A stretch of DNA of 64,000 nt from Chloroflexi bacterium RBG_16_56_11 (GCA_001796865.1 MGNQ01000051.1:65126-129125); one strand, 5' to 3'. Shown: positions 2,997 through 36,992, counted from the stretch's first letter. The notes: generated by a model from the sequence alone, not told the origin. Translations and numbers: made by a program.

Positions 2997-3063
2997 CATT
3001 CCGTACTTGATACGGAATCCAGGTGGGGCTGGAGGACTGGATTCCCGCCGGCGCGGGAATGAC
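2997..3063. repeat. Family-A element (CATTCCGTACTTGATACGGAATCCAGGT + short CTGGATTCCCGCC..GGGAATGAC module)
   Basis: The first 28 nt are identical to 31641-31668. The second module is the short form of the 80-bp element at 31686 and 36678. Confidence 0.85.
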
Positions 3064-11761: not shown

Positions 11762-12623
11762 AGCCAGGCTTGCCGTCATCGGCGGGACGGGGCTATACGA
11801 TATCGAGGGGCTGACGGACGTTACCGAGGTCAGGCCGGAGACGCCGTTCGGCAGGCCTTCCGACATAATCGTGGTGGGGCGGCTGGGCGAGGTGGGCATC
11901 GCCTTTCTGCCCCGGCACGGCAAAGGCCACCGTATCTCCCCTACCGGGGTCCCCTCCCGCGCCAATATCTACGCCCTTAAAGCGCTCGGCGTGGAGTTCA
12001 TCATCTCGTCAAACTCGTGCGGCAGCTTCAAGGAGGAGCTTAAACCCGGGCACCTGCTCGTGCCGGACCAGGTCATCGACCGCACCCGGCAGCGCGCCAG
12101 CACCTTCTTCAGCGAGGGAATCGTCGCCCACATCCAGTTCGCCGACCCCTTCTGCCCGGTGCTGAGCCGCATCGTCTACGAGTCCGCCGTGGCGGCCGGG
12201 GCCACCGTTCACCGGGGCGGCACCTTCGTTGTCATGGAAGGGCCAGCCTTCTCCACCCGCGCCGAGTCGAGGCTGTACCGCTCCTGGGGCGCCGATGTCA
12301 TCGGCATGACGGTCCTGCCGGAAGCCAAGCTCGCCCGCGAGGCGGAAATCTGCTACGCGTCTATCGGCTGCATCACCGACTACGACTCCTGGCACGAGAC
12401 CAGGGAGACGGTCACCGTCGAGGCAATCCTGACAACCATGCGCAACAACATCGACCACGCCAGGAAGACCATACGGCTGGCGGCGGGGAAGATACCGGAA
12501 AAGCGAGATTGCGCCTGCGCCACCGCTTTAGGACCGGCCATCGTCACCGACCTTTCCCTGGCGCCCGCCGCGCAGAAGAAAAAGCTCGACCTGCTCATCG
12601 GAAAATATTTGAAGAAGGCATAA
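11748..12623 (+). CDS. mtnP: S-methyl-5'-thioadenosine phosphorylase
   Basis: 291 aa. VIGGTGLY ... GRPSD ... FLPRHGKGHRISP ... matches the PNP/MTAP family signature. Confidence 0.88.
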   Translation: MPIPEARLAVIGGTGLYDIEGLTDVTEVRPETPFGRPSDIIVVGRLGEVGIAFLPRHGKGHRISPTGVPSRANIYALKALGVEFIISSNSCGSFKEELKPGHLLVPDQVIDRTRQRASTFFSEGIVAHIQFADPFCPVLSRIVYESAVAAGATVHRGGTFVVMEGPAFSTRAESRLYRSWGADVIGMTVLPEAKLAREAEICYASIGCITDYDSWHETRETVTVEAILTTMRNNIDHARKTIRLAAGKIPEKRDCACATALGPAIVTDLSLAPAAQKKKLDLLIGKYLKKA

Positions 12624-12627
12624 CGCT

Positions 12628-13665
12628 ATGTCCATTATAGAGTTCAACTGCCTGCCGACCAACATCGGCAGCCTGCCCTACACCGACCCCGTCAAGGCGT
12701 GCTCGGTGGTCGCCCGGCACCTGAAAGACATCCCCGTCTGGCCCCAGCTGCCACGCCGGTCCTTCCTGGAAAACCTGTACGTCCAGGCCAGCGAGGGCTT
12801 CCCCGGCCTGGTCGTTGAAGTCGACCGCGTTTATGTCAACACGGCCGCAGATTTTCAGAAGCCGCTGGAGGAGCTTTATGCGGCATATCTGGAGAACGAC
12901 ATCGGGCGTTTCCCCATCGGCCGGGACCACGCCGCCGGGCTGTACGAGTTCCTGGGGAAGACGGACCTCACGCCGCGCGCCGTCAAGGGCCAGGTCATCG
13001 GGCCGCTCTCCTGGGGGCTGACCGTCACCGACGAAAACAGGCGCGCCATCCTCTACCACGAAATCCTCGGGGACGCCGTGCCTAAATTCCTCAAGCTCAA
13101 GGCCGCCTGGATGGAAAGGGAGCTTGCCCGCGTCTCGAAGAATACCATCATCTTCGTCGACGAGCCGATAATGGCCTCCTACGGGTCGATTGTCGCCACC
13201 GGCCCGTTCTCCAATCCTGAGAAAATCGCCGGAATGATCAACGAGGTCTTCGAGGGCATCCGGGGACTGAAGGGAACGCACTGCTGCGGCAACACCGACT
13301 GGTCGGTGCTGCTCAAGACGAACCTGGACATCCTCAACTTCGACGCTTACAGCTACGCGGAGTCGGTCAGCCTCTATCCCGAAGAAATCAAGCGGTTCCT
13401 GGCCCGCGGCGGCTGTATCGCCTGGGGCATCGTGCCCAACGACGCGGAGTCCATCGGCCGGGAGATGGTAGCCAGCCTGAAAGACCGCCTCGAAGAGGCC
13501 ATGGCCCCCTTTACCCGCCACGGCGTCCGCTTCCGGGATCTGGCGGCGCAGAGTCTCATCACGCCGCGCTGCGGCCTGGACGGCCTTACCGAAGACGGCG
13601 CTGAAAAGGTCCTGGAATTGCTGACCGGTCTTTCCGGGGAGATGAGGCGAAAATATGGACTGTAG
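12628..13665 (+). CDS. Core-MetE-like protein (cobalamin-independent methionine synthase catalytic-domain-only homologue)
   Basis: 345 aa. The GTHCCGN (His-x-Cys zinc ligands) and ITPRCGLDGL (compare PDCGLK) motifs resemble the MetE C-terminal domain, and the length fits N-terminally truncated core MetE proteins. Confidence 0.6.
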   Translation: MSIIEFNCLPTNIGSLPYTDPVKACSVVARHLKDIPVWPQLPRRSFLENLYVQASEGFPGLVVEVDRVYVNTAADFQKPLEELYAAYLENDIGRFPIGRDHAAGLYEFLGKTDLTPRAVKGQVIGPLSWGLTVTDENRRAILYHEILGDAVPKFLKLKAAWMERELARVSKNTIIFVDEPIMASYGSIVATGPFSNPEKIAGMINEVFEGIRGLKGTHCCGNTDWSVLLKTNLDILNFDAYSYAESVSLYPEEIKRFLARGGCIAWGIVPNDAESIGREMVASLKDRLEEAMAPFTRHGVRFRDLAAQSLITPRCGLDGLTEDGAEKVLELLTGLSGEMRRKYGL

Positions 13666-13850
13666 CATCACCACAAAAAAAGCCCGCTGCATCTGAACCT
13701 GTGAGCCCTGCCCGCGCGGGGGCAATGCTGCGAGTGTACCGCCTACCCCCTGGAAAACCACGGGCTACCTGTGTGCGCCTTCCTGCCGGAGGTGGAACGC
13801 ACGTACGACCGGTCGTTCCAGCGCTTCGCGGTGTGGGTGAAGGAGAAGTA

Positions 13851-28596: not shown

Positions 28597-28706
28597 GTCA
28601 TTGCGAGCCATTCCCGAAGGGAAGGCGTGGCAATCTCCAGTCTGAGTCGAGTCAACGGATGAGATTGCCACGTCGCCCCGACTTCATCGGGACTCCTCGC
28701 AATGAC
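28597..28706. repeat. Family-A palindromic element
   Basis: gtcattgcgagcc ... gagattgccacgtcgccccgacttcatcgggactcctcgcaatgac. The last ~45 nt are nearly identical to 36947-36992. Confidence 0.85.
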
Positions 28707-28763: not shown

Positions 28764-29960
28764 TTGTCACTCGACCTCACCAGGGTAGCGGGACAGGTCA
28801 GCGCGATGATATCCCGGTTGGGCGACGGCCGCGACGAGGACCGGCGGCGACTCCGCTTCGCCGTGGACACGCTCAACAGTCCGGCCATCAACCTGGAGGC
28901 CCTGAAAAGGAAAATCGCCGCGAGCCGGACGACCTGGCTCGTGGCCGAGCTCGTCGAGGGGCTGAACCGGCACTACCCGTCCCCGCCCCTGCCGCGGGAC
29001 TTTACCGTCATCGCCGCCGACGGCTCACACATCGATGTCGACCGGCACCATTCGACCCGCTGCTATCTCATCAACATCGGCGCGGCGGTCATCAAATACG
29101 GGAACCAGCCGGACGCCTGCCTGTCCAGCCTCCCCCGCCTCTACTCCGAGGATAAAGACCTGGCGATTACCCCGCCGGGAAACGGGCGGCGGCAGCCCGT
29201 CGAGGGGACCATCCTCGGGGTCAAGCGTAGCGTCGAGGAGTGCCAGCGCCTGGCCGAGCTGACCGCCGGCGCGCCCGACGGCAGCGACTGCCTGGCCCTG
29301 CTCGACGGCACGCTTATCCTCTGGGGACTGGAGGCCTACCCGGACTTCGTAACGGACGTCCTGCTGAACAACGGCCTGCTGAAATGCCTGGGAGCGATGA
29401 AAAAGCTCAACGCCGGAAGAAGGGTCGCCATGGCCAGCTATATCAGTTTCCCGCGCAGCACCGATGTTGTGAACGTGCTGCGGGTGGCCATCTGCCCCAA
29501 TGACGCGCCCGACTGCGACCGTGACTGCCCGCCCGGCAGGGAAAGGGACTGCGAAGCAGTAGCCGACGTGCGCGACCGCGATATCTTTATGGACCTGCTG
29601 GAGACAGGGGAGAGGTCGGCGCTGTTCATCAGCCCGTCGCGAATCGTCAAGGAGCGTTACGGCGAGCACCGCATCTATTTCTTCTATCTCAGGGCCGGCG
29701 ACGAGATAGCCCGCATCGAGATACCGCAGTGGGTGGCGGAGAGCCAGCCCCTGCTCGATTTAACGCAATGCCTGGTGCTCGACCAGGTTAAACGGGGGCA
29801 GGGGTATCCGGTCGTCCTGAGCGAGGCGCACGAGCAAGCGGTGGTGACCGGGGCGGACCGGGAAAGCTTCTGGGAGCTGGTCGAGGTGTCCCTGGTAGAG
29901 GAGCACCTGCCCGGGACCGGTTCCGCCAAGAGCTTCAGCAAACGGACGAGGTGGATATAA
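28764..29960 (+). CDS. nurA: NurA-family 5'-3' nuclease
   Basis: 398 aa with a TTG start after a G-rich RBS. FTVIAADGSHIDV (catalytic DGS) and CLALLDGTLILWG are typical NurA-domain motifs. Confidence 0.75.
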   Translation: MSLDLTRVAGQVSAMISRLGDGRDEDRRRLRFAVDTLNSPAINLEALKRKIAASRTTWLVAELVEGLNRHYPSPPLPRDFTVIAADGSHIDVDRHHSTRCYLINIGAAVIKYGNQPDACLSSLPRLYSEDKDLAITPPGNGRRQPVEGTILGVKRSVEECQRLAELTAGAPDGSDCLALLDGTLILWGLEAYPDFVTDVLLNNGLLKCLGAMKKLNAGRRVAMASYISFPRSTDVVNVLRVAICPNDAPDCDRDCPPGRERDCEAVADVRDRDIFMDLLETGERSALFISPSRIVKERYGEHRIYFFYLRAGDEIARIEIPQWVAESQPLLDLTQCLVLDQVKRGQGYPVVLSEAHEQAVVTGADRESFWELVEVSLVEEHLPGTGSAKSFSKRTRWI

Positions 29961-29970
29961 AAAATAAACC

Positions 29971-30112
29971 GTCATTCCCGCGAAGGCGGGAACCCAGTCT
30001 CCCGCCCCGTCATTCTGAGCGGAGTGAAGAATCCGGGTGTGGAGCGGTATTGTCCTGGATTCCCGGGTCAAGCTTTCAGGCTGAGGCCTTCTGGCTGAAG
30101 CCCGAGAATGAC
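29971..30112. repeat. Family-A composite element
   Basis: gtcattcccgcgaaggcgggaac, gtcattctgagcggagtgaagaatcc, ctggattcccggg ... gagaatgac modules. Confidence 0.8.
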
Positions 30113-30137
30113 GTTGATGTTTGGAAGGGGTGAAACA

Positions 30138-30950
30138 ATGGAAGAGCCGACAGCCAATGCGGTGAAAGACATGGCCAGGTACTTCGGGGCGGACCTGGTG
30201 GGGATTGCGTCCGTAGACCGCTTCGAAGGGGCGCCGGCAGGACACGGCCCGCTGGACCTCGTGCCGAAGGCAAAGTCAGTCATCGTGTCGGGCGTGAGGA
30301 TTCCCGACCCGGTCGTGGACTATGACGGCTATCATTTAAAGATGGCGGAGATGCCGCCGGAGATGGGCATCCACGCCAACATCGAGAACTTCTACATGCT
30401 CATGGGCCATTACACGCAGGACATGATGCTCAATATCATCGCCACGCGGCTGGCCAACCGGCTGGAGACCGGCTGGGGACTGCGGACGCTGCCGACCCCG
30501 AACGCCCAGCACACGGGGCTGGGTCACCCGGTGATGGCGGCGCCTTTCGGGTTTTTCTCGCAGCGACACGCGGCGGTGCGGGCGGGGCTGGGCGAGTTCG
30601 GGCTGAGCGGGCTGGTCATCACACCGCTGTACGGTCCGCGCGTCCGCTACGTCTCCATCATCACCGAGGCTGAACTGGAGCCCGACCCCCTGCTGGCGGA
30701 GAAGGTCTGTATGAGAGGGAAGTGCGGCGGGGACGCGGGGCCGAAGTGCCAGCAGAGATGTGCCAAAAAGGCCCTGAAATTGCGCCCGGAGACCGTCCTC
30801 AACGGCGGGATTTTCCTCAACGTGCCGGTGAGCCTCGACCGGCCGAACTGCATCTCGATGACTGGCGACCAGGGGAGCTTCGGCTGCACGTTCATCGGCA
30901 CCTGCATGAGGGAATGCCCGGTGGGACAGAAGGTGACGAAGAGGGGATAA
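30138..30950 (+). CDS. QueG/RdhA-like iron-sulfur protein (epoxyqueuosine reductase-like fold)
   Basis: FSQRHAAVRAGLGEFGLSGLVITPLYGPRVRYVSIITEAELEPD parallels the QueG core. There are C-terminal Cys clusters including GTCMRECPVG. ATG 30138 has an RBS. Confidence 0.55.
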   Translation: MEEPTANAVKDMARYFGADLVGIASVDRFEGAPAGHGPLDLVPKAKSVIVSGVRIPDPVVDYDGYHLKMAEMPPEMGIHANIENFYMLMGHYTQDMMLNIIATRLANRLETGWGLRTLPTPNAQHTGLGHPVMAAPFGFFSQRHAAVRAGLGEFGLSGLVITPLYGPRVRYVSIITEAELEPDPLLAEKVCMRGKCGGDAGPKCQQRCAKKALKLRPETVLNGGIFLNVPVSLDRPNCISMTGDQGSFGCTFIGTCMRECPVGQKVTKRG

Positions 30951-30964
30951 AAGGGGAGTGAGTT

Positions 30965-31492
30965 ATGGTAATTTGGGAGAATAGGGTTAATCCTGAGCGT
31001 TTAGGGTACATAATATATGAGTGTCCTGAGTGTAAAGTAAAAGGAACGTTCTCGGTAGAACAAATACGTAAAAAATTACATCTTTATTTCATACCAACTT
31101 TCAATTATTCAACAGAACAATATGTTACTTGTACAAACTGCAAGGCCACACTCAAAGTGCCTAAGGAACTGAAGTCAGAAATGTCCAAGAATCTCATAAG
31201 TCAAGAGGAATTATCCTCGGTACTACGAAAAGCAAATAATACTAAACCAATAAAAACCAACATAACACAAGAAAATAATCCTAACAATAATCAAAAAGTA
31301 GTTACTAAAAAAGATTCGGCACCCGCATTTGTGTGTTTATGTTGTGGTGCACCATATAATTCTCAATGGTGGGAGACGTATGGAGCAAGATACAGATGCT
31401 GTAGCGGTTTGCCGAATGTCGAGCAAGAAGAGTTATGGGATAATCGCTTATATCCAGAAATACCTCTTAATAATTGCCCGCATCAGCTATGA
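30965..31492 (+). CDS. Zinc-ribbon protein on an AT-rich islet, unknown function
   Basis: CPECKVKG ... LHLYFIPTF ... CTNCKATL resembles a zinc_ribbon_15-type domain. An Asn/Lys-rich linker is followed by a second Cys-rich region (CLCCG ... RCCSG). Confidence 0.55.
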   Translation: MVIWENRVNPERLGYIIYECPECKVKGTFSVEQIRKKLHLYFIPTFNYSTEQYVTCTNCKATLKVPKELKSEMSKNLISQEELSSVLRKANNTKPIKTNITQENNPNNNQKVVTKKDSAPAFVCLCCGAPYNSQWWETYGARYRCCSGLPNVEQEELWDNRLYPEIPLNNCPHQL

Positions 31493-31535
31493 TATTCGTT
31501 GAAATTATCAATAAATAAAACAGGAGGTCTAACTC

Positions 31536-31616
31536 ATGGGTAACAAAGGCAGAAAGAACGTCAAGAAACCCAAGCAGGCTAAAGGCAAGAAGGCAGAAGC
31601 CGGCAAGAAGAAATAG
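31536..31616 (+). CDS. Small Lys-rich peptide (26 aa)
   Basis: Below the ORF-track cut-off. CAGGAGG RBS at 31521-31527, then ATG 31536. Encodes MGNKGRKNVKKPKQAKGKKAEAGKKK. Confidence 0.4.
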   Translation: MGNKGRKNVKKPKQAKGKKAEAGKKK

Positions 31617-31640
31617 GGAAATAAATCTATCTAAAATTCT

Positions 31641-31865
31641 CATTCCGTACTTGATACGGAATCCAGGTAGAATGGGGTGGAGTAACTGGATTCCCGCCGG
31701 AGTTTACCCCGTTCACGGTGAATCCGTTCAGGGTGAACCCGTATTTGATACGGGGCGGGAATGACAGCGGTGCATGATTGCTTCGCCCTCGGGCTGGTTC
31801 CACTGAGTCACCACGAAGTGAACTCGGGCTGAAGCCCCCCGATTTTATCGGGTCCCGCAATGACA
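31641..31865. repeat. Family-A composite element including the 80-bp copy A (31686-31765)
   Basis: The modules in order are as follows. A 28-nt block is identical to 2997-3024. An 80-nt block is identical to 36678-36757. A partial copy of the 1950/58118 element sits at 31794-31821. The terminal module is ccgattttatcgggtcccgcaatgac. Confidence 0.9.
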
Positions 31866-31889
31866 CGGATGTAGGCAGATTATAAGGGG

Positions 31890-32489
31890 GTGAGGTCTAT
31901 CAATAAAGACTCTCCGAAAAAAATCGCGGAGGTGATAGAGGCGAGCGCGACGCAGTTCAGCGCCCAGTGCTACGAGCTTTACGAGATACCCCCGTTGGGC
32001 AGCCTGGTCAGGACGGGCGATATCTACGGGGTCGTCGCCGGGGCGGAGACCACCAGCCTGGAACCGGGGAGGAAGCCGATCGCCCGCGGGAAGGACGAGG
32101 CCTCGGAGGAAGCCGTTTATGAGTCCAGTCCCCAACTGGCGAAGCTCCTCCGCAGCGAGTTAACAGCAGCAGTGGTCGGCTTTAAAAACGGCGATAAAGT
32201 TGTTCAATACCTGCCCCCCCAACCCGCCCGCATCCACGGGTTTGTATACTTATGTCAACCTGACGAAATCAGGGATTTCAGCCGGTCGTTCGGGTTCCTC
32301 AATACTCTGATTGACGCCGACCTGCCCGTGCCGGACGAAGAAGTCGTTGCCGCCACTTTGAGGCAGATGAGCCAGGCCCACGGGGACAGCCGGACCTTCC
32401 TGGTAGCGGCGGGTAAAGAGCTGGCCGCCCTGCTCAGCAATGACTATCTCCGGCTGAAAAACATCCTGGGGAGGCTGACGCCGGCATGA
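31890..32489 (+). CDS. Stand-alone HAS-barrel-like protein (HerA N-terminal domain homologue), otherwise uncharacterised
   Basis: 199 aa with a GTG start after AAGGGGG. KIAEVIEASATQFSAQCYEL..LGSLVRTGDIYGVVAGAET ... AAVVGFKNGDKVVQYLPPQPARIHGFVYLCQPDEIRDF follows the beta-barrel pattern of HerA/ATP-synthase N-terminal domains. This is fold-level recognition only. Confidence 0.35.
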   Translation: MRSINKDSPKKIAEVIEASATQFSAQCYELYEIPPLGSLVRTGDIYGVVAGAETTSLEPGRKPIARGKDEASEEAVYESSPQLAKLLRSELTAAVVGFKNGDKVVQYLPPQPARIHGFVYLCQPDEIRDFSRSFGFLNTLIDADLPVPDEEVVAATLRQMSQAHGDSRTFLVAAGKELAALLSNDYLRLKNILGRLTPA

Positions 32490-33328
32490 AACCACAGGAA
32501 TATTACACGTCCCAAAGTGATATCTCCGACCCCGGAGAATACAAATACCTTTTTGTTGATTTACCGGATGACATTCCCTCACTCTGTAAAATCCTTCAGG
32601 GCTTGATTCTCCATATGCATTGGGCGGAACGCTACGGAGTAAAGCTGACCGGGGACATCTTCAAAGAGCACAAACTGCGCAGCACAGCGCGTCAGTTAGA
32701 AAAAATAATGGAGCGCGACGACAGTCCCCTGTCTGTTACCCGCCCGCCGGAACGCCGGTTAGTGGGTAACTGCCGGGACTTTTCCGTCCTGTTAACAGCT
32801 ATGTTACGGCACAAGGGTATCCCGGCGCGTGCCCGTTGCGGATTCGCGACCTATTTCATCCCCAGGCATTATGAGGACCACTGGGTCTGCCAGTACTGGA
32901 AACGAGATGAAAAAAGATGGATAATGGTCGATGCCCAGCTGGACGAGTTGCAGCGCGACACGATATATCTCAAATTCGACACGTTCGACATACCCAAAGG
33001 GTTATTCCTGCCGGCTGGAGATTCCTGGTTGATGTGCCGCTCCGGCAAGGCCGACCCCGAACTGTTCGGCTTTGGTGATTTCAACGGCCTATGGTTCATC
33101 GGTGGGAATTTGATACGAGACCTGCTTTCGTTGAATAAGGTAGAATTAACGTACTTTGATGATTGGGGTTTATTACCCGCGTTCAAACAGAAGGAATTTT
33201 CACCCGGGTATTTGGAAAAATTAGATGAAATTGCGGCGGCAACAAAGGGGAGCAATCCTTCCGCTGCTAAAGTGCAGTCGCTCTTTAAAAATAAAGAGCT
33301 AGCCACCCCGCCCGGCTGGCAACCTTGA
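32486..33328 (+). CDS. Transglutaminase-like cysteine protease superfamily protein
   Basis: A Cys-His-Asp triad in the canonical order: GNCRDFSVLLTAMLRHKGIPAR, HYEDHWVCQYW, WIMVDAQ. The ATG overlaps the upstream stop (ATGA). Confidence 0.7.
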   Translation: MKPQEYYTSQSDISDPGEYKYLFVDLPDDIPSLCKILQGLILHMHWAERYGVKLTGDIFKEHKLRSTARQLEKIMERDDSPLSVTRPPERRLVGNCRDFSVLLTAMLRHKGIPARARCGFATYFIPRHYEDHWVCQYWKRDEKRWIMVDAQLDELQRDTIYLKFDTFDIPKGLFLPAGDSWLMCRSGKADPELFGFGDFNGLWFIGGNLIRDLLSLNKVELTYFDDWGLLPAFKQKEFSPGYLEKLDEIAAATKGSNPSAAKVQSLFKNKELATPPGWQP

Positions 33329-33345
33329 AAAGCGGGAGACAATTG

Positions 33346-34962
33346 ATGGTAGAAAATCTAAAACTCGGCATTGTTACCGCTGCCTCACTGGAGAAGGGTG
33401 TGGACGTGCGGCTGGACGCCCCGGTGTCGGTGGAGGACATGGTGGTGGGCCGCTACGTCACCATCGAGGGGCAGAAACGGCGCTTCTTCGGCATGATAAC
33501 GGATGTCAGCCTGGGCGTCACCGACGAGCGACTCGCCATTTCACCGCCGGATGTCAACGACCCATTCATCGCCGACGTATTGACCGGCACGAGCACGTTC
33601 GGGACGATACACGTCACACCCATGCTGACCATCAGCGGTGACGCCAAAGCCGTGCTGGAAGGCCCGCAGCCGGTCAAGACCATCCCCGCCCATTTCGCCG
33701 CGGTCAACCTGGCCTCGGAACAAGATATAGAAAACGTTTTCGGTAAAGAGGATAAAGAGAGATTCAACATCGGCAACCCGCTGGACATGGAGACGAAGCT
33801 CTGCCTCAACCTGGTCGAGCTCGTCAAGCGTTCCAACGGCATCTTCGGCAAGAGCGGCACAGGCAAGACGTTCCTCACCCGCATCCTGCTCATCGGGATG
33901 TTGCAAAAGAGCCAGGCGGTCAACCTGGTCTTCGACATGCACAACGAGTACGGCTGGATAGGTACGCGCGAAGGCGGAGGGACAGCCAAGGGGCTGAAAC
34001 AACTCTTTCCAGCGAAGGTGGCCGTCTTTACCCTCGACGAGGAAAGCTCACGGCGACGCAAGGTAAGCACGGACTTCGTGGTGAAAATAGGACTCAACGA
34101 GATAATGCCGGAGGACATCTCCATCCTGCGCTCGACTTTTAATCTCACAGATCTGGCCGTGGAAGCTGCCTACCAGCTTTACAAAATCCTCGGGCACGAC
34201 TGGCTAAACAAAGTGCTTAACCTAGGAGAAGAGGAACTTGAAGAACTGCTAAAGGGAGCAACCATTCATGAAGGTTCCTTCGAGAACCTCAAGCGCGGCC
34301 TGGGCTCCATTGGCCGACTCGGCTTCGTCGTGCCGGAAGCAAAAGGTGACTCCGTAAAGAATATCCTGGATTTTCTCTTACAGGGGCGTAATGTCGTCCT
34401 AGAATTCGGGCGCTACCAGGAAATCGGCGCTTATCTGCTAGTAGCTAACCTGCTTTCCCGCCGTATCTATTCCCGTTACAAGGAGCAGATGGAAGAAGCC
34501 ATCGCCGTGGATAACGAGGCACTAAAGCCAAGACCACTCGTCATCACTATTGAAGAAGCACACAAGTTTCTGAACCCCGAGGTGGCGGATAAGACTATCT
34601 TCGGCACCATCGCCCGGGAGATGCGCAAGTACAATGTCAGCCTGCTGGTCATCGACCAGCGTCCCAGCGGCATCAGCGAAGAGGTGATGTCGCAGATGGG
34701 CACGAAGATAACCTGCCTCCTCGATAACGAGAGGGATATCGACAGCGTCCTGGCCGGGGTCTCCGGCAAGAACGAGCTGAAGTCGGTGCTGTCCCGGCTG
34801 GCGCCCAAGCAGCAGGCGCTCATCTTCGGCCACGCGGTGCCCATGCCGGTAGCGTTCCAGCCCGTCGCCTACGATGCCAAGTTCTACGCCAGTCTGACAG
34901 GAGCTGGGCAAAAATCAACCACGGAACAGGTCGAAAAGGATATCGAAGAGCTCTGGAAATAG
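33346..34962 (+). CDS. herA: HerA-like (DUF87, FtsK-HerA superfamily) ATPase
   Basis: N-terminal HAS-barrel pattern, Walker A GKSGTGKT (33847-33870), Walker B-type PLVITIEEAHKF, SLLVIDQRPSGI. I prefer ATG 33346 (GGGAGA RBS); the ORF-track TTG at 33325 overlaps the upstream stop. Confidence 0.8.
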   Translation: MVENLKLGIVTAASLEKGVDVRLDAPVSVEDMVVGRYVTIEGQKRRFFGMITDVSLGVTDERLAISPPDVNDPFIADVLTGTSTFGTIHVTPMLTISGDAKAVLEGPQPVKTIPAHFAAVNLASEQDIENVFGKEDKERFNIGNPLDMETKLCLNLVELVKRSNGIFGKSGTGKTFLTRILLIGMLQKSQAVNLVFDMHNEYGWIGTREGGGTAKGLKQLFPAKVAVFTLDEESSRRRKVSTDFVVKIGLNEIMPEDISILRSTFNLTDLAVEAAYQLYKILGHDWLNKVLNLGEEELEELLKGATIHEGSFENLKRGLGSIGRLGFVVPEAKGDSVKNILDFLLQGRNVVLEFGRYQEIGAYLLVANLLSRRIYSRYKEQMEEAIAVDNEALKPRPLVITIEEAHKFLNPEVADKTIFGTIAREMRKYNVSLLVIDQRPSGISEEVMSQMGTKITCLLDNERDIDSVLAGVSGKNELKSVLSRLAPKQQALIFGHAVPMPVAFQPVAYDAKFYASLTGAGQKSTTEQVEKDIEELWK

Positions 34963-34973
34963 GTGTTAATAAA

Positions 34974-35789
34974 ATGTCTACCCGGAAGAAAATCGGACTG
35001 GCGCTGAGCGCCGGGGCCGCCCGCGGCCTGGCGCACATCGGGGTGCTCCACGTCCTGCAAAGAGAGGGCATACCCATCGACCTGATTGCGGGCACCAGCG
35101 CCGGGGCGGTCATCGGGGCCATCTACGCCAGCCGGGGGGACGCCTCACGCATGAAGCGAGAGGCCCTGGCGATAAGCTGGAAAACAAGGGCGGGGCTTCT
35201 CGACCCCTCTTTACCCCGCAGCGGCCTCATCAAAGGGAAAAGAATCGAGAGTCTGTTTAAGCGGTACATCGGCGGGAACCTGACTTTCGGTGAGCTCAAG
35301 ATACCGTTTGCCTGCCTGGCGACGGACATCGACAGCGGCGAGGAAATCGTCATCCGGGAAGGCCCGGTGACAAAAGCCCTGCGGGCCAGCATCGCCATCC
35401 CGGCCATCTTCACCGTGGCCGAGCGCGACGGCCGGTACCTGGTCGATGGCGGGCTGACCACGCCGGTACCGGTGAACGTGGCGCGGGACATGGGGGCGGA
35501 GGTGGTCATCGCGGTGAACGTGACGCCGCAGGTGACCGACCGCAATATCCGGCAAACGGAAAAGCGCGCCCGCAAACCGAAGGAGCCGGGCATTTTCTAC
35601 GTCATCACGCAATCGATATACATCTCGACGTACTGCCTGGCGCAGGGCAACCTGCAAAACGCCGACATCGTCATCGAGCCGGCGGTGGGGCACATCGGCG
35701 CCGGCGACTTTACCAGGATTAAAGACCTCGTCCGTCTGGGGGAAGAGGCGGCGCTAAAGGCGATACCGGAGATAAAGCGGAAGATATAA
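34974..35789 (+). CDS. Patatin-like phospholipase
   Basis: Oxyanion region LSAGAARGLAHIGVL, nucleophile elbow GTSAG and catalytic Asp in LVDGGL. Starts 11 nt after herA. Confidence 0.85.
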   Translation: MSTRKKIGLALSAGAARGLAHIGVLHVLQREGIPIDLIAGTSAGAVIGAIYASRGDASRMKREALAISWKTRAGLLDPSLPRSGLIKGKRIESLFKRYIGGNLTFGELKIPFACLATDIDSGEEIVIREGPVTKALRASIAIPAIFTVAERDGRYLVDGGLTTPVPVNVARDMGAEVVIAVNVTPQVTDRNIRQTEKRARKPKEPGIFYVITQSIYISTYCLAQGNLQNADIVIEPAVGHIGAGDFTRIKDLVRLGEEAALKAIPEIKRKI

Positions 35790-35797
35790 GGCTGAAT

Positions 35798-36643
35798 ATG
35801 AGAGCCGCGCGACTTTACGCTCAACTGGAGAGGGACTTCATCACACCGGCGTTAAGCGATGAATGGGCAAAACACATGACGCCGATAGCCGAATTCCTCA
35901 CCGAAAATTACAAAAAGCGCTCGATGGGGTTGGTTTGCGATAACTCTCCCGAAATAAGAAGGGTCTACACCGCGGTGTTTCCATCGAACGATGTTATGCA
36001 ATCTATCCTGGATAAAGGTGAGAAGGAAGTGATGCTATTCGTGCACCACCCTTCAGTCTGGGATATCACTTTGGGCGGATTCCAGCAAATGGATCGAAGC
36101 CTGCTGGAAAAATTCAAAGAATGTGAAATTTCCGTCTATAATCTCCATGTCCCCTTGGATAATTACGGGAGCTATTCTACCAGTGTGACTCTGGCGAAAG
36201 CAATGGGTCTGACAGAATTGCGGCCTTTTCTGGAATATTACGGTAGTTTAGCCGCCGTCTTCGGTAACACTGAATCGACTACAGTTCAGGAAATGTCAGA
36301 GAGGTTCACGGCTGTAATCGGTCACGGGACGAGTCTTTATCAATACGGTACAGACCGGATAAAGAACGGTATCGTTGCCGTAGCCGCCGGAGGCGGTAAC
36401 ATAGTCGAGGTACATGAAGAAATAGCCCGCGAGGGTATTAATTTATTAATCACGGGAATCACTGTTAAAAATCCCTTTACCATGAAAGCCCACGATTTCG
36501 CGAAAGAAAAGCGAATCAATATTCTGGGGGGCACCCACTATACTACAGAGAAACCCGCCTGCCAGGCTATGTGCAACTATTTCCGTAAACTTGGCTTGCC
36601 CTCCGAGTTTATCGCCGGCACGCCGGGTCTTGAGGATTTATAA
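35798..36643 (+). CDS. NIF3 (YbgI/GTP cyclohydrolase 1 type 2 homologue) family protein
   Basis: 281 aa. MLFVHHPSVWD and a C-terminal GGTHYTTEK are typical of the NIF3 dinuclear-metal family. Starts 8 nt after the patatin gene. It looks less GC-rich than herA by eye. Confidence 0.7.
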   Translation: MRAARLYAQLERDFITPALSDEWAKHMTPIAEFLTENYKKRSMGLVCDNSPEIRRVYTAVFPSNDVMQSILDKGEKEVMLFVHHPSVWDITLGGFQQMDRSLLEKFKECEISVYNLHVPLDNYGSYSTSVTLAKAMGLTELRPFLEYYGSLAAVFGNTESTTVQEMSERFTAVIGHGTSLYQYGTDRIKNGIVAVAAGGGNIVEVHEEIAREGINLLITGITVKNPFTMKAHDFAKEKRINILGGTHYTTEKPACQAMCNYFRKLGLPSEFIAGTPGLEDL

Positions 36644-36677: not shown

Positions 36678-36992
36678 CTGGATTCCCGCCGGAGTTTACC
36701 CCGTTCACGGTGAATCCGTTCAGGGTGAACCCGTATTTGATACGGGGCGGGAATGACGCCCATTCTTAGAACGGGGCGTCTAAGAGGGGTTCATCCTGAA
36801 TGTTCACCCTGAAGGGTGCAGACCCCTTTTTTCTTTGTGCCCCCTTCCTTTCATAAAGGAAGGGGGCCAGGGGGATGGATTTTCGAAAAGGCCAGGGGAT
36901 GAGGCTACTGGATTCCCGCTTCCGCGGGAATGACAAACCACACATCGAGATTGCCACGTCGTCCCGACTGCATCGGGACTCCTCGCAATGTC
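36678..36992. repeat. Composite repeat cluster including the 80-bp copy B (36678-36757), family-B hairpins and a family-A terminal module
   Basis: 80 nt are identical to 31686-31765. Then come the ggggcgtctaagagggg module, the ccccttcctttcataaaggaaggggg hairpin, ctggattcccgcttccgcgggaatgac and gagattgccacgtcgtcccgactgcatcgggactcctcgcaatgtc. Confidence 0.9.

Follow-up and report, generated by a model that had tools for sequence, protein, structure and literature searches.

The window analysed here is a 64,000-nucleotide stretch of DNA from Chloroflexi bacterium RBG_16_56_11, a metagenome-assembled genome of Dehalococcoidales type, and the locus in question is a group of genes around nurA and herA, all on the plus strand. 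Exact or 99% matches to the deposited proteins A2Z29_11340 and A2Z29_11345 agree with this origin. The gene nurA (28764-29960, 398 aa) encodes a NurA-family nuclease. Further downstream, five genes are closely packed: p199 (31890-32489), which encodes a 199-aa protein of an uncharacterised family, predicted to be a stand-alone HAS-barrel with a helical tail; a gene for a transglutaminase-like Cys-His-Asp enzyme (32486-33328, 280 aa); herA (33346-34962), which encodes a hexameric translocase ATPase of the HerA/DUF87 family (538 aa counted from the ATG, an alternative TTG start at 33325 being likewise open); a gene for a patatin-like phospholipase (34974-35789, 271 aa); and one for a NIF3/YbgI-family protein (35798-36643, 281 aa). 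The first two of these overlap by 4 nt, and the following gaps measure 17, 11 and 8 nt. The first terminator-like hairpin with a T-run on the plus strand 3' of this string is found at 36811-36829, as a consensus match only; scans for promoters and terminators were otherwise uninformative. Open reading frames (ORFs), strand, coordinates and spacings had been given in the same way by an earlier sequence-only reading of this DNA, and all were confirmed. That reading proposed that the five genes and nurA work as one system. Our analysis points at a smaller unit: nurA, p199 and herA appear to form a conserved trio, to which the other genes are not integral.

With Pfam matches counted only above the gathering score, the earlier family assignments hold for NurA, Transglut_core, DUF87, Patatin and NIF3, that is, for five of the six genes. 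The motifs quoted for these proteins are present, and the key residues of NurA, the transglutaminase-like enzyme, HerA and the patatin are invariant among their orthologues. NurA matches PF09376 with an E-value of 4.7e-28 (98.8 bits against a cut-off of 21), and its catalytic residues D86 and D181 are found in 52 out of 52 orthologues; a sequence search of the PDB gave no match for it. HerA matches DUF87 (PF01935, E 1.1e-25) and carries a HAS-barrel of its own (PF09378, E 2.7e-7). Its Walker A motif GKSGTGKT (33847-33870), the EE pair of LVITIEEAH and residue R439 are invariant in 13 orthologues. HerA identity ranges from 52 to 88% among orthologues across Dehalococcoidia and Anaerolineae, and from 72 to 88% over the 120 best-scoring protein clusters. 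The HerA proteins of solved structure are more remote, with a best PDB match of E 3e-22 over ~110 residues, and Deinococcus HerA was not retrieved at E <= 1e-5 in a PDB sequence search with the window HerA.

Gene order was surveyed in 82 loci with HerA orthologues, representing 80 species-representative genomes and two contigs from Dehalococcoidia and Anaerolineae, with HerA 52-84% identical to that of the window. Four further loci were taken from the nearest relatives (HerA 85-88% identical), and the window proteins were mapped onto all loci. Among the 52 loci whose upstream DNA extends to 4 kb or more, nurA lies on the same strand 5' of p199-herA in 42. NurA and p199 occur together in 42 of the 52 and are both missing from 6; p199 is present alone in 4, and NurA alone in none. 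The p199 gene was found in 63 of 70 HerA loci with upstream DNA, is the gene immediately 5' of herA in 58 of the 62 loci where p199 was found, and lies within 60 nt of herA in 51 loci, often overlapping it. In the more distant Dehalococcoidia loci (HerA 53-57% identical), nurA, p199 and herA follow one another directly, -18 to 95 nt apart. The trio is still linked in five Anaerolineae/Chloroflexota loci in which p199 has dropped to 26-34% identity and the remaining synteny is lost. Taken together, these gene orders suggest a conserved trio that is apparently restricted to Chloroflexota. Neither p199 nor the trio has a family model, and nothing relevant on a third NurA-HerA subunit was found in the literature library searched; to our knowledge, both the trio and the p199 family have so far been undescribed. 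This part of the earlier interpretation is supported: NurA, the small HAS-barrel protein and HerA go together, and family models, the literature searched and PADLOC systems offer no counterpart of their trio.

The identity of p199 is best approached through its predicted structure. Searches with this protein gave zero family matches in Pfam (E <= 0.01), NCBIfam, PADLOC and PHROGs, and a profile search of the PDB returned chance uS10 matches only. The family comprises 730 representative clusters (E <= 0.001), and all members bearing a name are listed as 'hypothetical protein' from Chloroflexota, the marine SAR202 group included. An AlphaFold2 model based on an alignment of 46 homologues reaches a mean predicted local distance difference test score (pLDDT) of 92.8 and a predicted template-modelling score of 0.86, and displays a beta-barrel at residues 11-121 followed by five helices. 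Foldseek comparison of this model with the PDB yielded 50 matches at E <= 0.001, all of them HerA or HerA-like translocase chains, with a probability of 1.00 and 123-164 aligned columns; the best is 9x1l_A (E 4.7e-7). These chains belong to HerA-NurA of archaea, to HerA of Deinococcus, and to complexes of the Sir2-HerA, DUF4297-HerA and TdpAB systems. Direct alignment of p199 with the HerA N-terminus by hhalign falls in the expected register, though it is not significant (E 0.035-0.045, probability 1-1.5%, with both full-length HerA and its N-terminal 145 residues tried). The earlier description of the 199-aa protein as HAS-barrel-like is thus borne out by predicted structure, but not by sequence, where PF09378 is not matched either. 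At the level of predicted fold, p199 is a HAS-barrel protein, and from the model we infer common ancestry with the N-domain of HerA. As herA here retains its own HAS-barrel, p199 would represent an additional barrel and not a piece split off HerA. Domain fusions were considered as a functional clue and rejected: the 372-aa protein P0451 joins the NurA C-terminus to p199 via an out-of-frame stretch, a gene-call or frameshift artefact, and other long forms are due to miscalled starts or loop insertions.

The flanks of the locus are conserved across relatives too, with SecDF, a cation-efflux gene (CDF) and LysE upstream, and PlsC, LytB, an acyl-CoA dehydrogenase (ACAD), an electron-transfer flavoprotein (ETF) and PlsY downstream. 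In the nearest relatives the order reads SecDF-CDF-LysE-NurA-(two variable genes)-p199-HerA-patatin...PlsC-LytB-ACAD-ETF-PlsY, with neither a transglutaminase-like gene nor NIF3. This order bears directly on the proposal of a single conflict or defence system made up of all five genes and nurA, whose nuclease, transglutaminase-fold protease and patatin lipase would be licensed by the HerA ring. Tight packing and probable co-transcription in the window speak for such a system, as do the intact catalytic residues of all the enzymes, the precedent of HerA scaffolding single effectors in known defence systems (whose PDB entries are among the Foldseek matches of p199) and a weak similarity of the patatin to phospholipase effector models of PADLOC (E 2e-5). 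However, the combination is unique to the window genome among the ~95 loci surveyed overall. The transglutaminase-like gene occurs in 0 of the 82 HerA loci and NIF3 in 1, the patatin is confined to closer relatives and missing from the loci that bear the transglutaminase-like gene, and in one locus (L170) it is apparently split. The sequence-only reading had stated that its proposal fails if orthologues of the cassette genes are not syntenic elsewhere, and this case applies: p199-HerA-patatin is all that the nearest relatives retain of the cassette. No system model of PADLOC, searched for a described or defence system, fits the locus, which sits at a fixed chromosomal position between housekeeping flanks. 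Its relatives are absent from IMG/VR viral contigs, and plasmid matches are all below 30% identity. As far as gene order can tell, the synteny survey has already largely refuted the single five-gene system, and we consider it highly improbable.

The patatin matches PF01734 with E 5e-30, and residues S42 and D158 are invariant in 33 of 33 orthologues. With its GxSxG serine and DGG aspartate dyad it resembles RssA-type patatin-like phospholipases, and RssA (NF007623) is its best NCBIfam match (E 2.4e-43); its 148.5 bits nonetheless stay below the equivalog cut-off of 272. Unlike the CapV lipases of the cyclic-oligonucleotide-based antiphage signalling system CBASS, it scores far under the cut-off of the CBASS_lipase model NF041079 (20.1 bits against 200) and has no adjacent cyclase; no CD-NTase or other signalling gene was found in the locus. 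Among HerA loci with downstream DNA, 25 of 62 contain the patatin gene, which adjoins herA in 17. All have a HerA at least 62% identical to that of the window, corresponding to Dehalococcoidales-level relatives, and the adjacency reaches as deep as the synteny of SecDF, the cation-efflux gene, LysE, PlsC and LytB. The patatin is best described as an order-level neighbour that is probably co-transcribed with herA. In locus L170 (9777-10600) it is called as two fragments of 180 and 110 aa, and it is intact in the near-identical L169, which leaves a pseudogene or an assembly error as explanations. The NIF3 protein matches PF01784 (E 4e-24, 86 bits against a cut-off of 23.4) and reaches 63 bits on the TIGR00486 equivalog, under the cut-off of 130.55, so it is a divergent member. 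The sole HerA locus other than the window to hold NIF3 is L010, where a patatin gene is also followed by NIF3 (~12078-13700). Identities to the window proteins in this locus are 79% for NIF3, 72% for HerA and 61% for the patatin; this excess identity of NIF3 hints at its lateral movement.

The transglutaminase-like gene displays a different pattern. Its product matches PF01841 (E 2.5e-9, 37.8 bits against a cut-off of 23), and the triad C96/H132/D149 is invariant in 16 sequences. The predicted fold (pLDDT 75) finds the putative cysteine protease 3isr as its best Foldseek match (E 2.4e-3), which identifies a generic transglutaminase/cysteine-protease fold only. The enzyme shares with that superfamily the Cys-His-Asp triad on a transglutaminase core, but belongs to a cytoplasmic Chloroflexota family of ~280 residues that has additional helical regions and none of whose members has been characterised. 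A homologue search starting from the gene itself covered 84 loci, ~15 of which have it in the slot between p199 and herA or in an enlarged version of this slot. Homologues that share 53% identity or more with the window protein were found in 13 loci: 11 demonstrably belong to a HerA locus, and the other two share slot cargo with proven loci and likely do so as well. Two more, at 50-52% identity, are also inside a HerA locus. The remaining ~66 homologue loci (44-52% identity) present heterogeneous, unrelated contexts, and outside the HerA locus the family has no recurrent neighbour except FtsK, in 3-5 loci. In L100 (3312-5717), L106, L113 (8850-11036) and L114, a homologue of ~50% identity lies 15-80 nt 5' of ftsK; the 3-5 metagenomic loci of this kind may all derive from one lineage. 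FtsK and HerA stand for the two branches of one translocase superfamily, FtsK-HerA.

In a neighbour-joining tree of HerA, loci bearing the transglutaminase-like gene occupy at least 4 places, and the window is nested among relatives without the gene. Such scattered positions argue for repeated loss, or for lateral transfer into the same slot. Where these loci could be read through herA, KsgA (and IspE) follow one or two genes 3' of herA and never the patatin; accordingly, transglutaminase-like enzyme and patatin are seen together in the window only. The complete Dehalococcoidales genome CP070842.1 (L086, 1673-10363) has a p199-herA slot swollen to 6.5 kb, containing AraC/GyrI-like, DLH, radical-SAM/SPASM, transglutaminase-like, GNAT, PNP_UDP_1 and DUF6886 genes, with cyclic-nucleotide-binding (cNMP-binding) and MazG genes between nurA and p199. 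Judged by gene content, insertions are tolerated in this slot, where no other gene persists as much as the transglutaminase-like one.

Wherever it is present, the enzyme could serve the p199-HerA machine as a genuine accessory, either by cleaving or cross-linking HerA, p199 or NurA, or as a Rad4/PNGase-like adaptor. Its return to the same slot in ~15 loci on at least 4 branches of the HerA tree would fit such a role, especially with all 13 loci of at least 53% identity placed in a HerA locus (two of them likely so), an invariant triad, and apparent translational coupling in the window through the ATGA overlap and the 17 nt to herA. Moreover, only HerA and p199 recur strongly next to members of the family, which in 3-5 further loci are followed by the related translocase FtsK. 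On the other hand, the gene is missing from 82 of 82 HerA loci in the survey set and from the nearest relatives of the window, most of its homologues are in contexts that do not recur, the slot accepts plainly unrelated genes (AraC, DLH, radical SAM, GNAT, PNP), and the structural match is to a generic fold. We regard a functional accessory as possible but doubtful; the gene may be accessory in a scattered minority of lineages.

Insertions are also found on the other side of p199. Across relatives the nurA-p199 gap varies from -18 to ~2500 nt and holds different genes in each, and in the window this slot carries variable cargo on the plus strand (30108-31620) that we place outside the system. 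A 280-aa ORF at 30108-30950 has a weak partial match to reductive dehalogenases (TIGR02486, E 3e-8 over 43 residues), and only L032 (~7377) has a counterpart in the same slot, 57% identical. The adjoining segment 30965-31620 is foreign-looking, with a GC content of ~43%; in it lie a zinc-ribbon ORF of 175 aa (PF17032, marginal) and the 26-codon lysine-rich ORF MGNKGRKNVKKPKQAKGKKAEAGKKK (31537-31617), which is preceded by GGAGG.

The identical repeats said to bracket the five genes are real: two plus-strand copies of an 80-nt repetitive extragenic palindrome/miniature inverted-repeat transposable element (REP/MITE)-like hairpin lie at 31686-31765 and 36678-36757. The repeat folds with -21.9 kcal/mol (z -3.8), and its arms CTGGATTCCCGC...GCGGGAATGAC are common to shorter copies at 3037-3063, 29971-29998 and 36908-36934. 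The short hairpin repeat is scattered over the window, and the 80-nt copies are its long-loop version, with a structured loop of 56 nt; the loop sequence was not found in 170 related loci. A role as mobile-cassette ends was rejected, as relatives have p199-herA-patatin at this chromosomal position too. With the enclosed genes at their ancestral position, the repeats can be attributed to an intergenic repeat family. A second repeat of 44 nt, 95% identical between its copies, is located at 28661-28704, just 5' of nurA, and at 36947-36990, 3' of NIF3; it has an internal CCCGA...TCGGG hairpin and an inverted arm at 28619-28637.

The nearest characterised relatives of the trio are the NurA-HerA machines of Deinococcus and archaea, in which double-stranded DNA is moved along by a HerA hexamer and digested by a NurA dimer that sits on the HAS-barrel ring. 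The six HAS-barrels of HerA form the pore face for the NurA dimer in a 6:2 complex, and ATP-driven translocation feeds NurA (PMC9960219). The window shares with Deinococcus radiodurans NurA-HerA (PMC9960219) and with archaeal HerA-NurA (Sulfolobus, Thermococcus) a NurA with conserved catalytic aspartates, a HerA with N-terminal HAS-barrel, Walker A/B motifs and arginine finger, and the linkage of nurA and herA on one strand. It differs from them in the third conserved gene, for a predicted stand-alone HAS-barrel protein, between nurA and herA, in a HerA sequence remote from the solved ones, and in the lack of linked mre11/rad50.

HerA rings also serve anti-phage systems. In Sir2-HerA/Nezha, DUF4297-HerA and TdpAB, the HAS-barrel face of a HerA hexamer binds a partner, and their HerA chains are among the structural matches of the predicted p199 fold. 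The window, in contrast, has no TdpB-type partner and no Sir2 or DUF4297 domain in the locus by Pfam, and its locus is chromosomal and conserved instead of a variable island. The window HerA reaches neither anti-phage model, with 85.7 bits on NF042943 (cut-off 800) and 56 bits on NF042944 (850). On HerA with transglutaminase or patatin, and on TdpAB, the literature library searched gave nothing relevant. Certain Anaerolineae/Aggregatilineales HerA orthologues (52-54% identical), at L075 11624-12784, L079 11614-12792 and L077 8760-9572, have no NurA and p199 nearby and are accompanied by a VWA_CoxE protein 3' or a TIR-domain protein 5'; this clade may have a different, conflict-type use.

Such neighbours, together with slots that gather variable cargo as defence islands do, HerA scores that are alike on anti-phage and repair models and the unlinked Mre11/Rad50 genes, could point at the trio itself being an immune or conflict nuclease-translocase that degrades invading DNA (cf. 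TdpAB, DUF4297-HerA), with p199 as sensor or regulator. Patchy, fast-evolving defence genes would, however, hardly be expected to show class-wide conservation, a fixed chromosomal position and high identity. Viral-contig relatives and plasmid matches of 30% identity or more are missing here too, and none of the locus neighbours matches PADLOC beyond the weak phospholipase matches of the patatin. A defence function of the trio therefore seems unlikely to us.

The evidence is best explained by a chromosomal, vertically inherited NurA-HerA DNA-end-processing module of a Dehalococcoidales bacterium with p199 as a third conserved gene in Chloroflexota, and on sequence and structural models we consider this reading likely. 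Fixed position, housekeeping flanks, high HerA conservation and the absence of viral or close plasmid relatives all favour a housekeeping role. By analogy, the window proteins would be expected to assemble as HerA6:NurA2, with an ATPase that depends on DNA and the ability to resect ends. The third component would be p199, a protein of ~200 residues encoded directly 5' of herA; its docking-domain fold, translational coupling to herA and strict co-occurrence with nurA suggest that it acts at the HerA/NurA interface, probably where NurA meets the HAS-barrels. There it could stack as an extra ring or bridge HerA and NurA as an adaptor; alternatively, it could be a cap or competitor controlling the loading of NurA. 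The transglutaminase-like enzyme would then be an accessory in an insertion-tolerant slot, the patatin an RssA-type lipase travelling at order level with genes of lipid metabolism (PlsC, PlsY, acyl-CoA dehydrogenase), and NIF3 a sporadic insertion.

Several observations weigh against this end-processing module. In the window, nurA and p199 are 1.9 kb apart, and the families that recur up to 6 genes away from herA in 80+ loci do not include Mre11/Rad50 (SbcCD). HerA is equally far from repair-type and anti-phage models, at ~80-86 bits against cut-offs of 800. The HAS-barrel kinship of p199 comes from predicted structure, with a query-normalised TM-score of ~0.44, and profile comparison is not significant. 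Gaps of 0-40 nt between herA and the patatin gene in 17 loci suggest co-transcription and hence a possible patatin link, and the transglutaminase-like gene, with HerA and p199 as its only strongly recurrent neighbours, returns to exactly the p199-herA slot in lineages with HerA 62-74% identical. As to the second of these points, mre11/rad50 linkage is a hallmark of the archaeal systems; bacterial ones of the Deinococcus type do not need it.

A bolder version, which we hold to be very unlikely, has p199 as a second HAS-barrel ring, or mixed into the HerA crown, where it would gate the partner: NurA throughout, joined in some Dehalococcoidales by the co-transcribed transglutaminase-like enzyme and patatin. 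If this were true, a housekeeping resection motor would become a modular multi-effector conflict or stress machine.

For annotation, the locus illustrates that close packing of genes in a single genome is not enough to make them a system; the protease, lipase and NIF3 genes should not be labelled HerA effectors. Work on NurA-HerA has treated the machine as made of two proteins. A class-wide third partner that shares its predicted fold with the surface to which NurA binds would, if true, be an undescribed built-in regulator or adaptor of end resection, and p199 would also be relevant to the recruitment of different partners by HerA rings in anti-phage systems.

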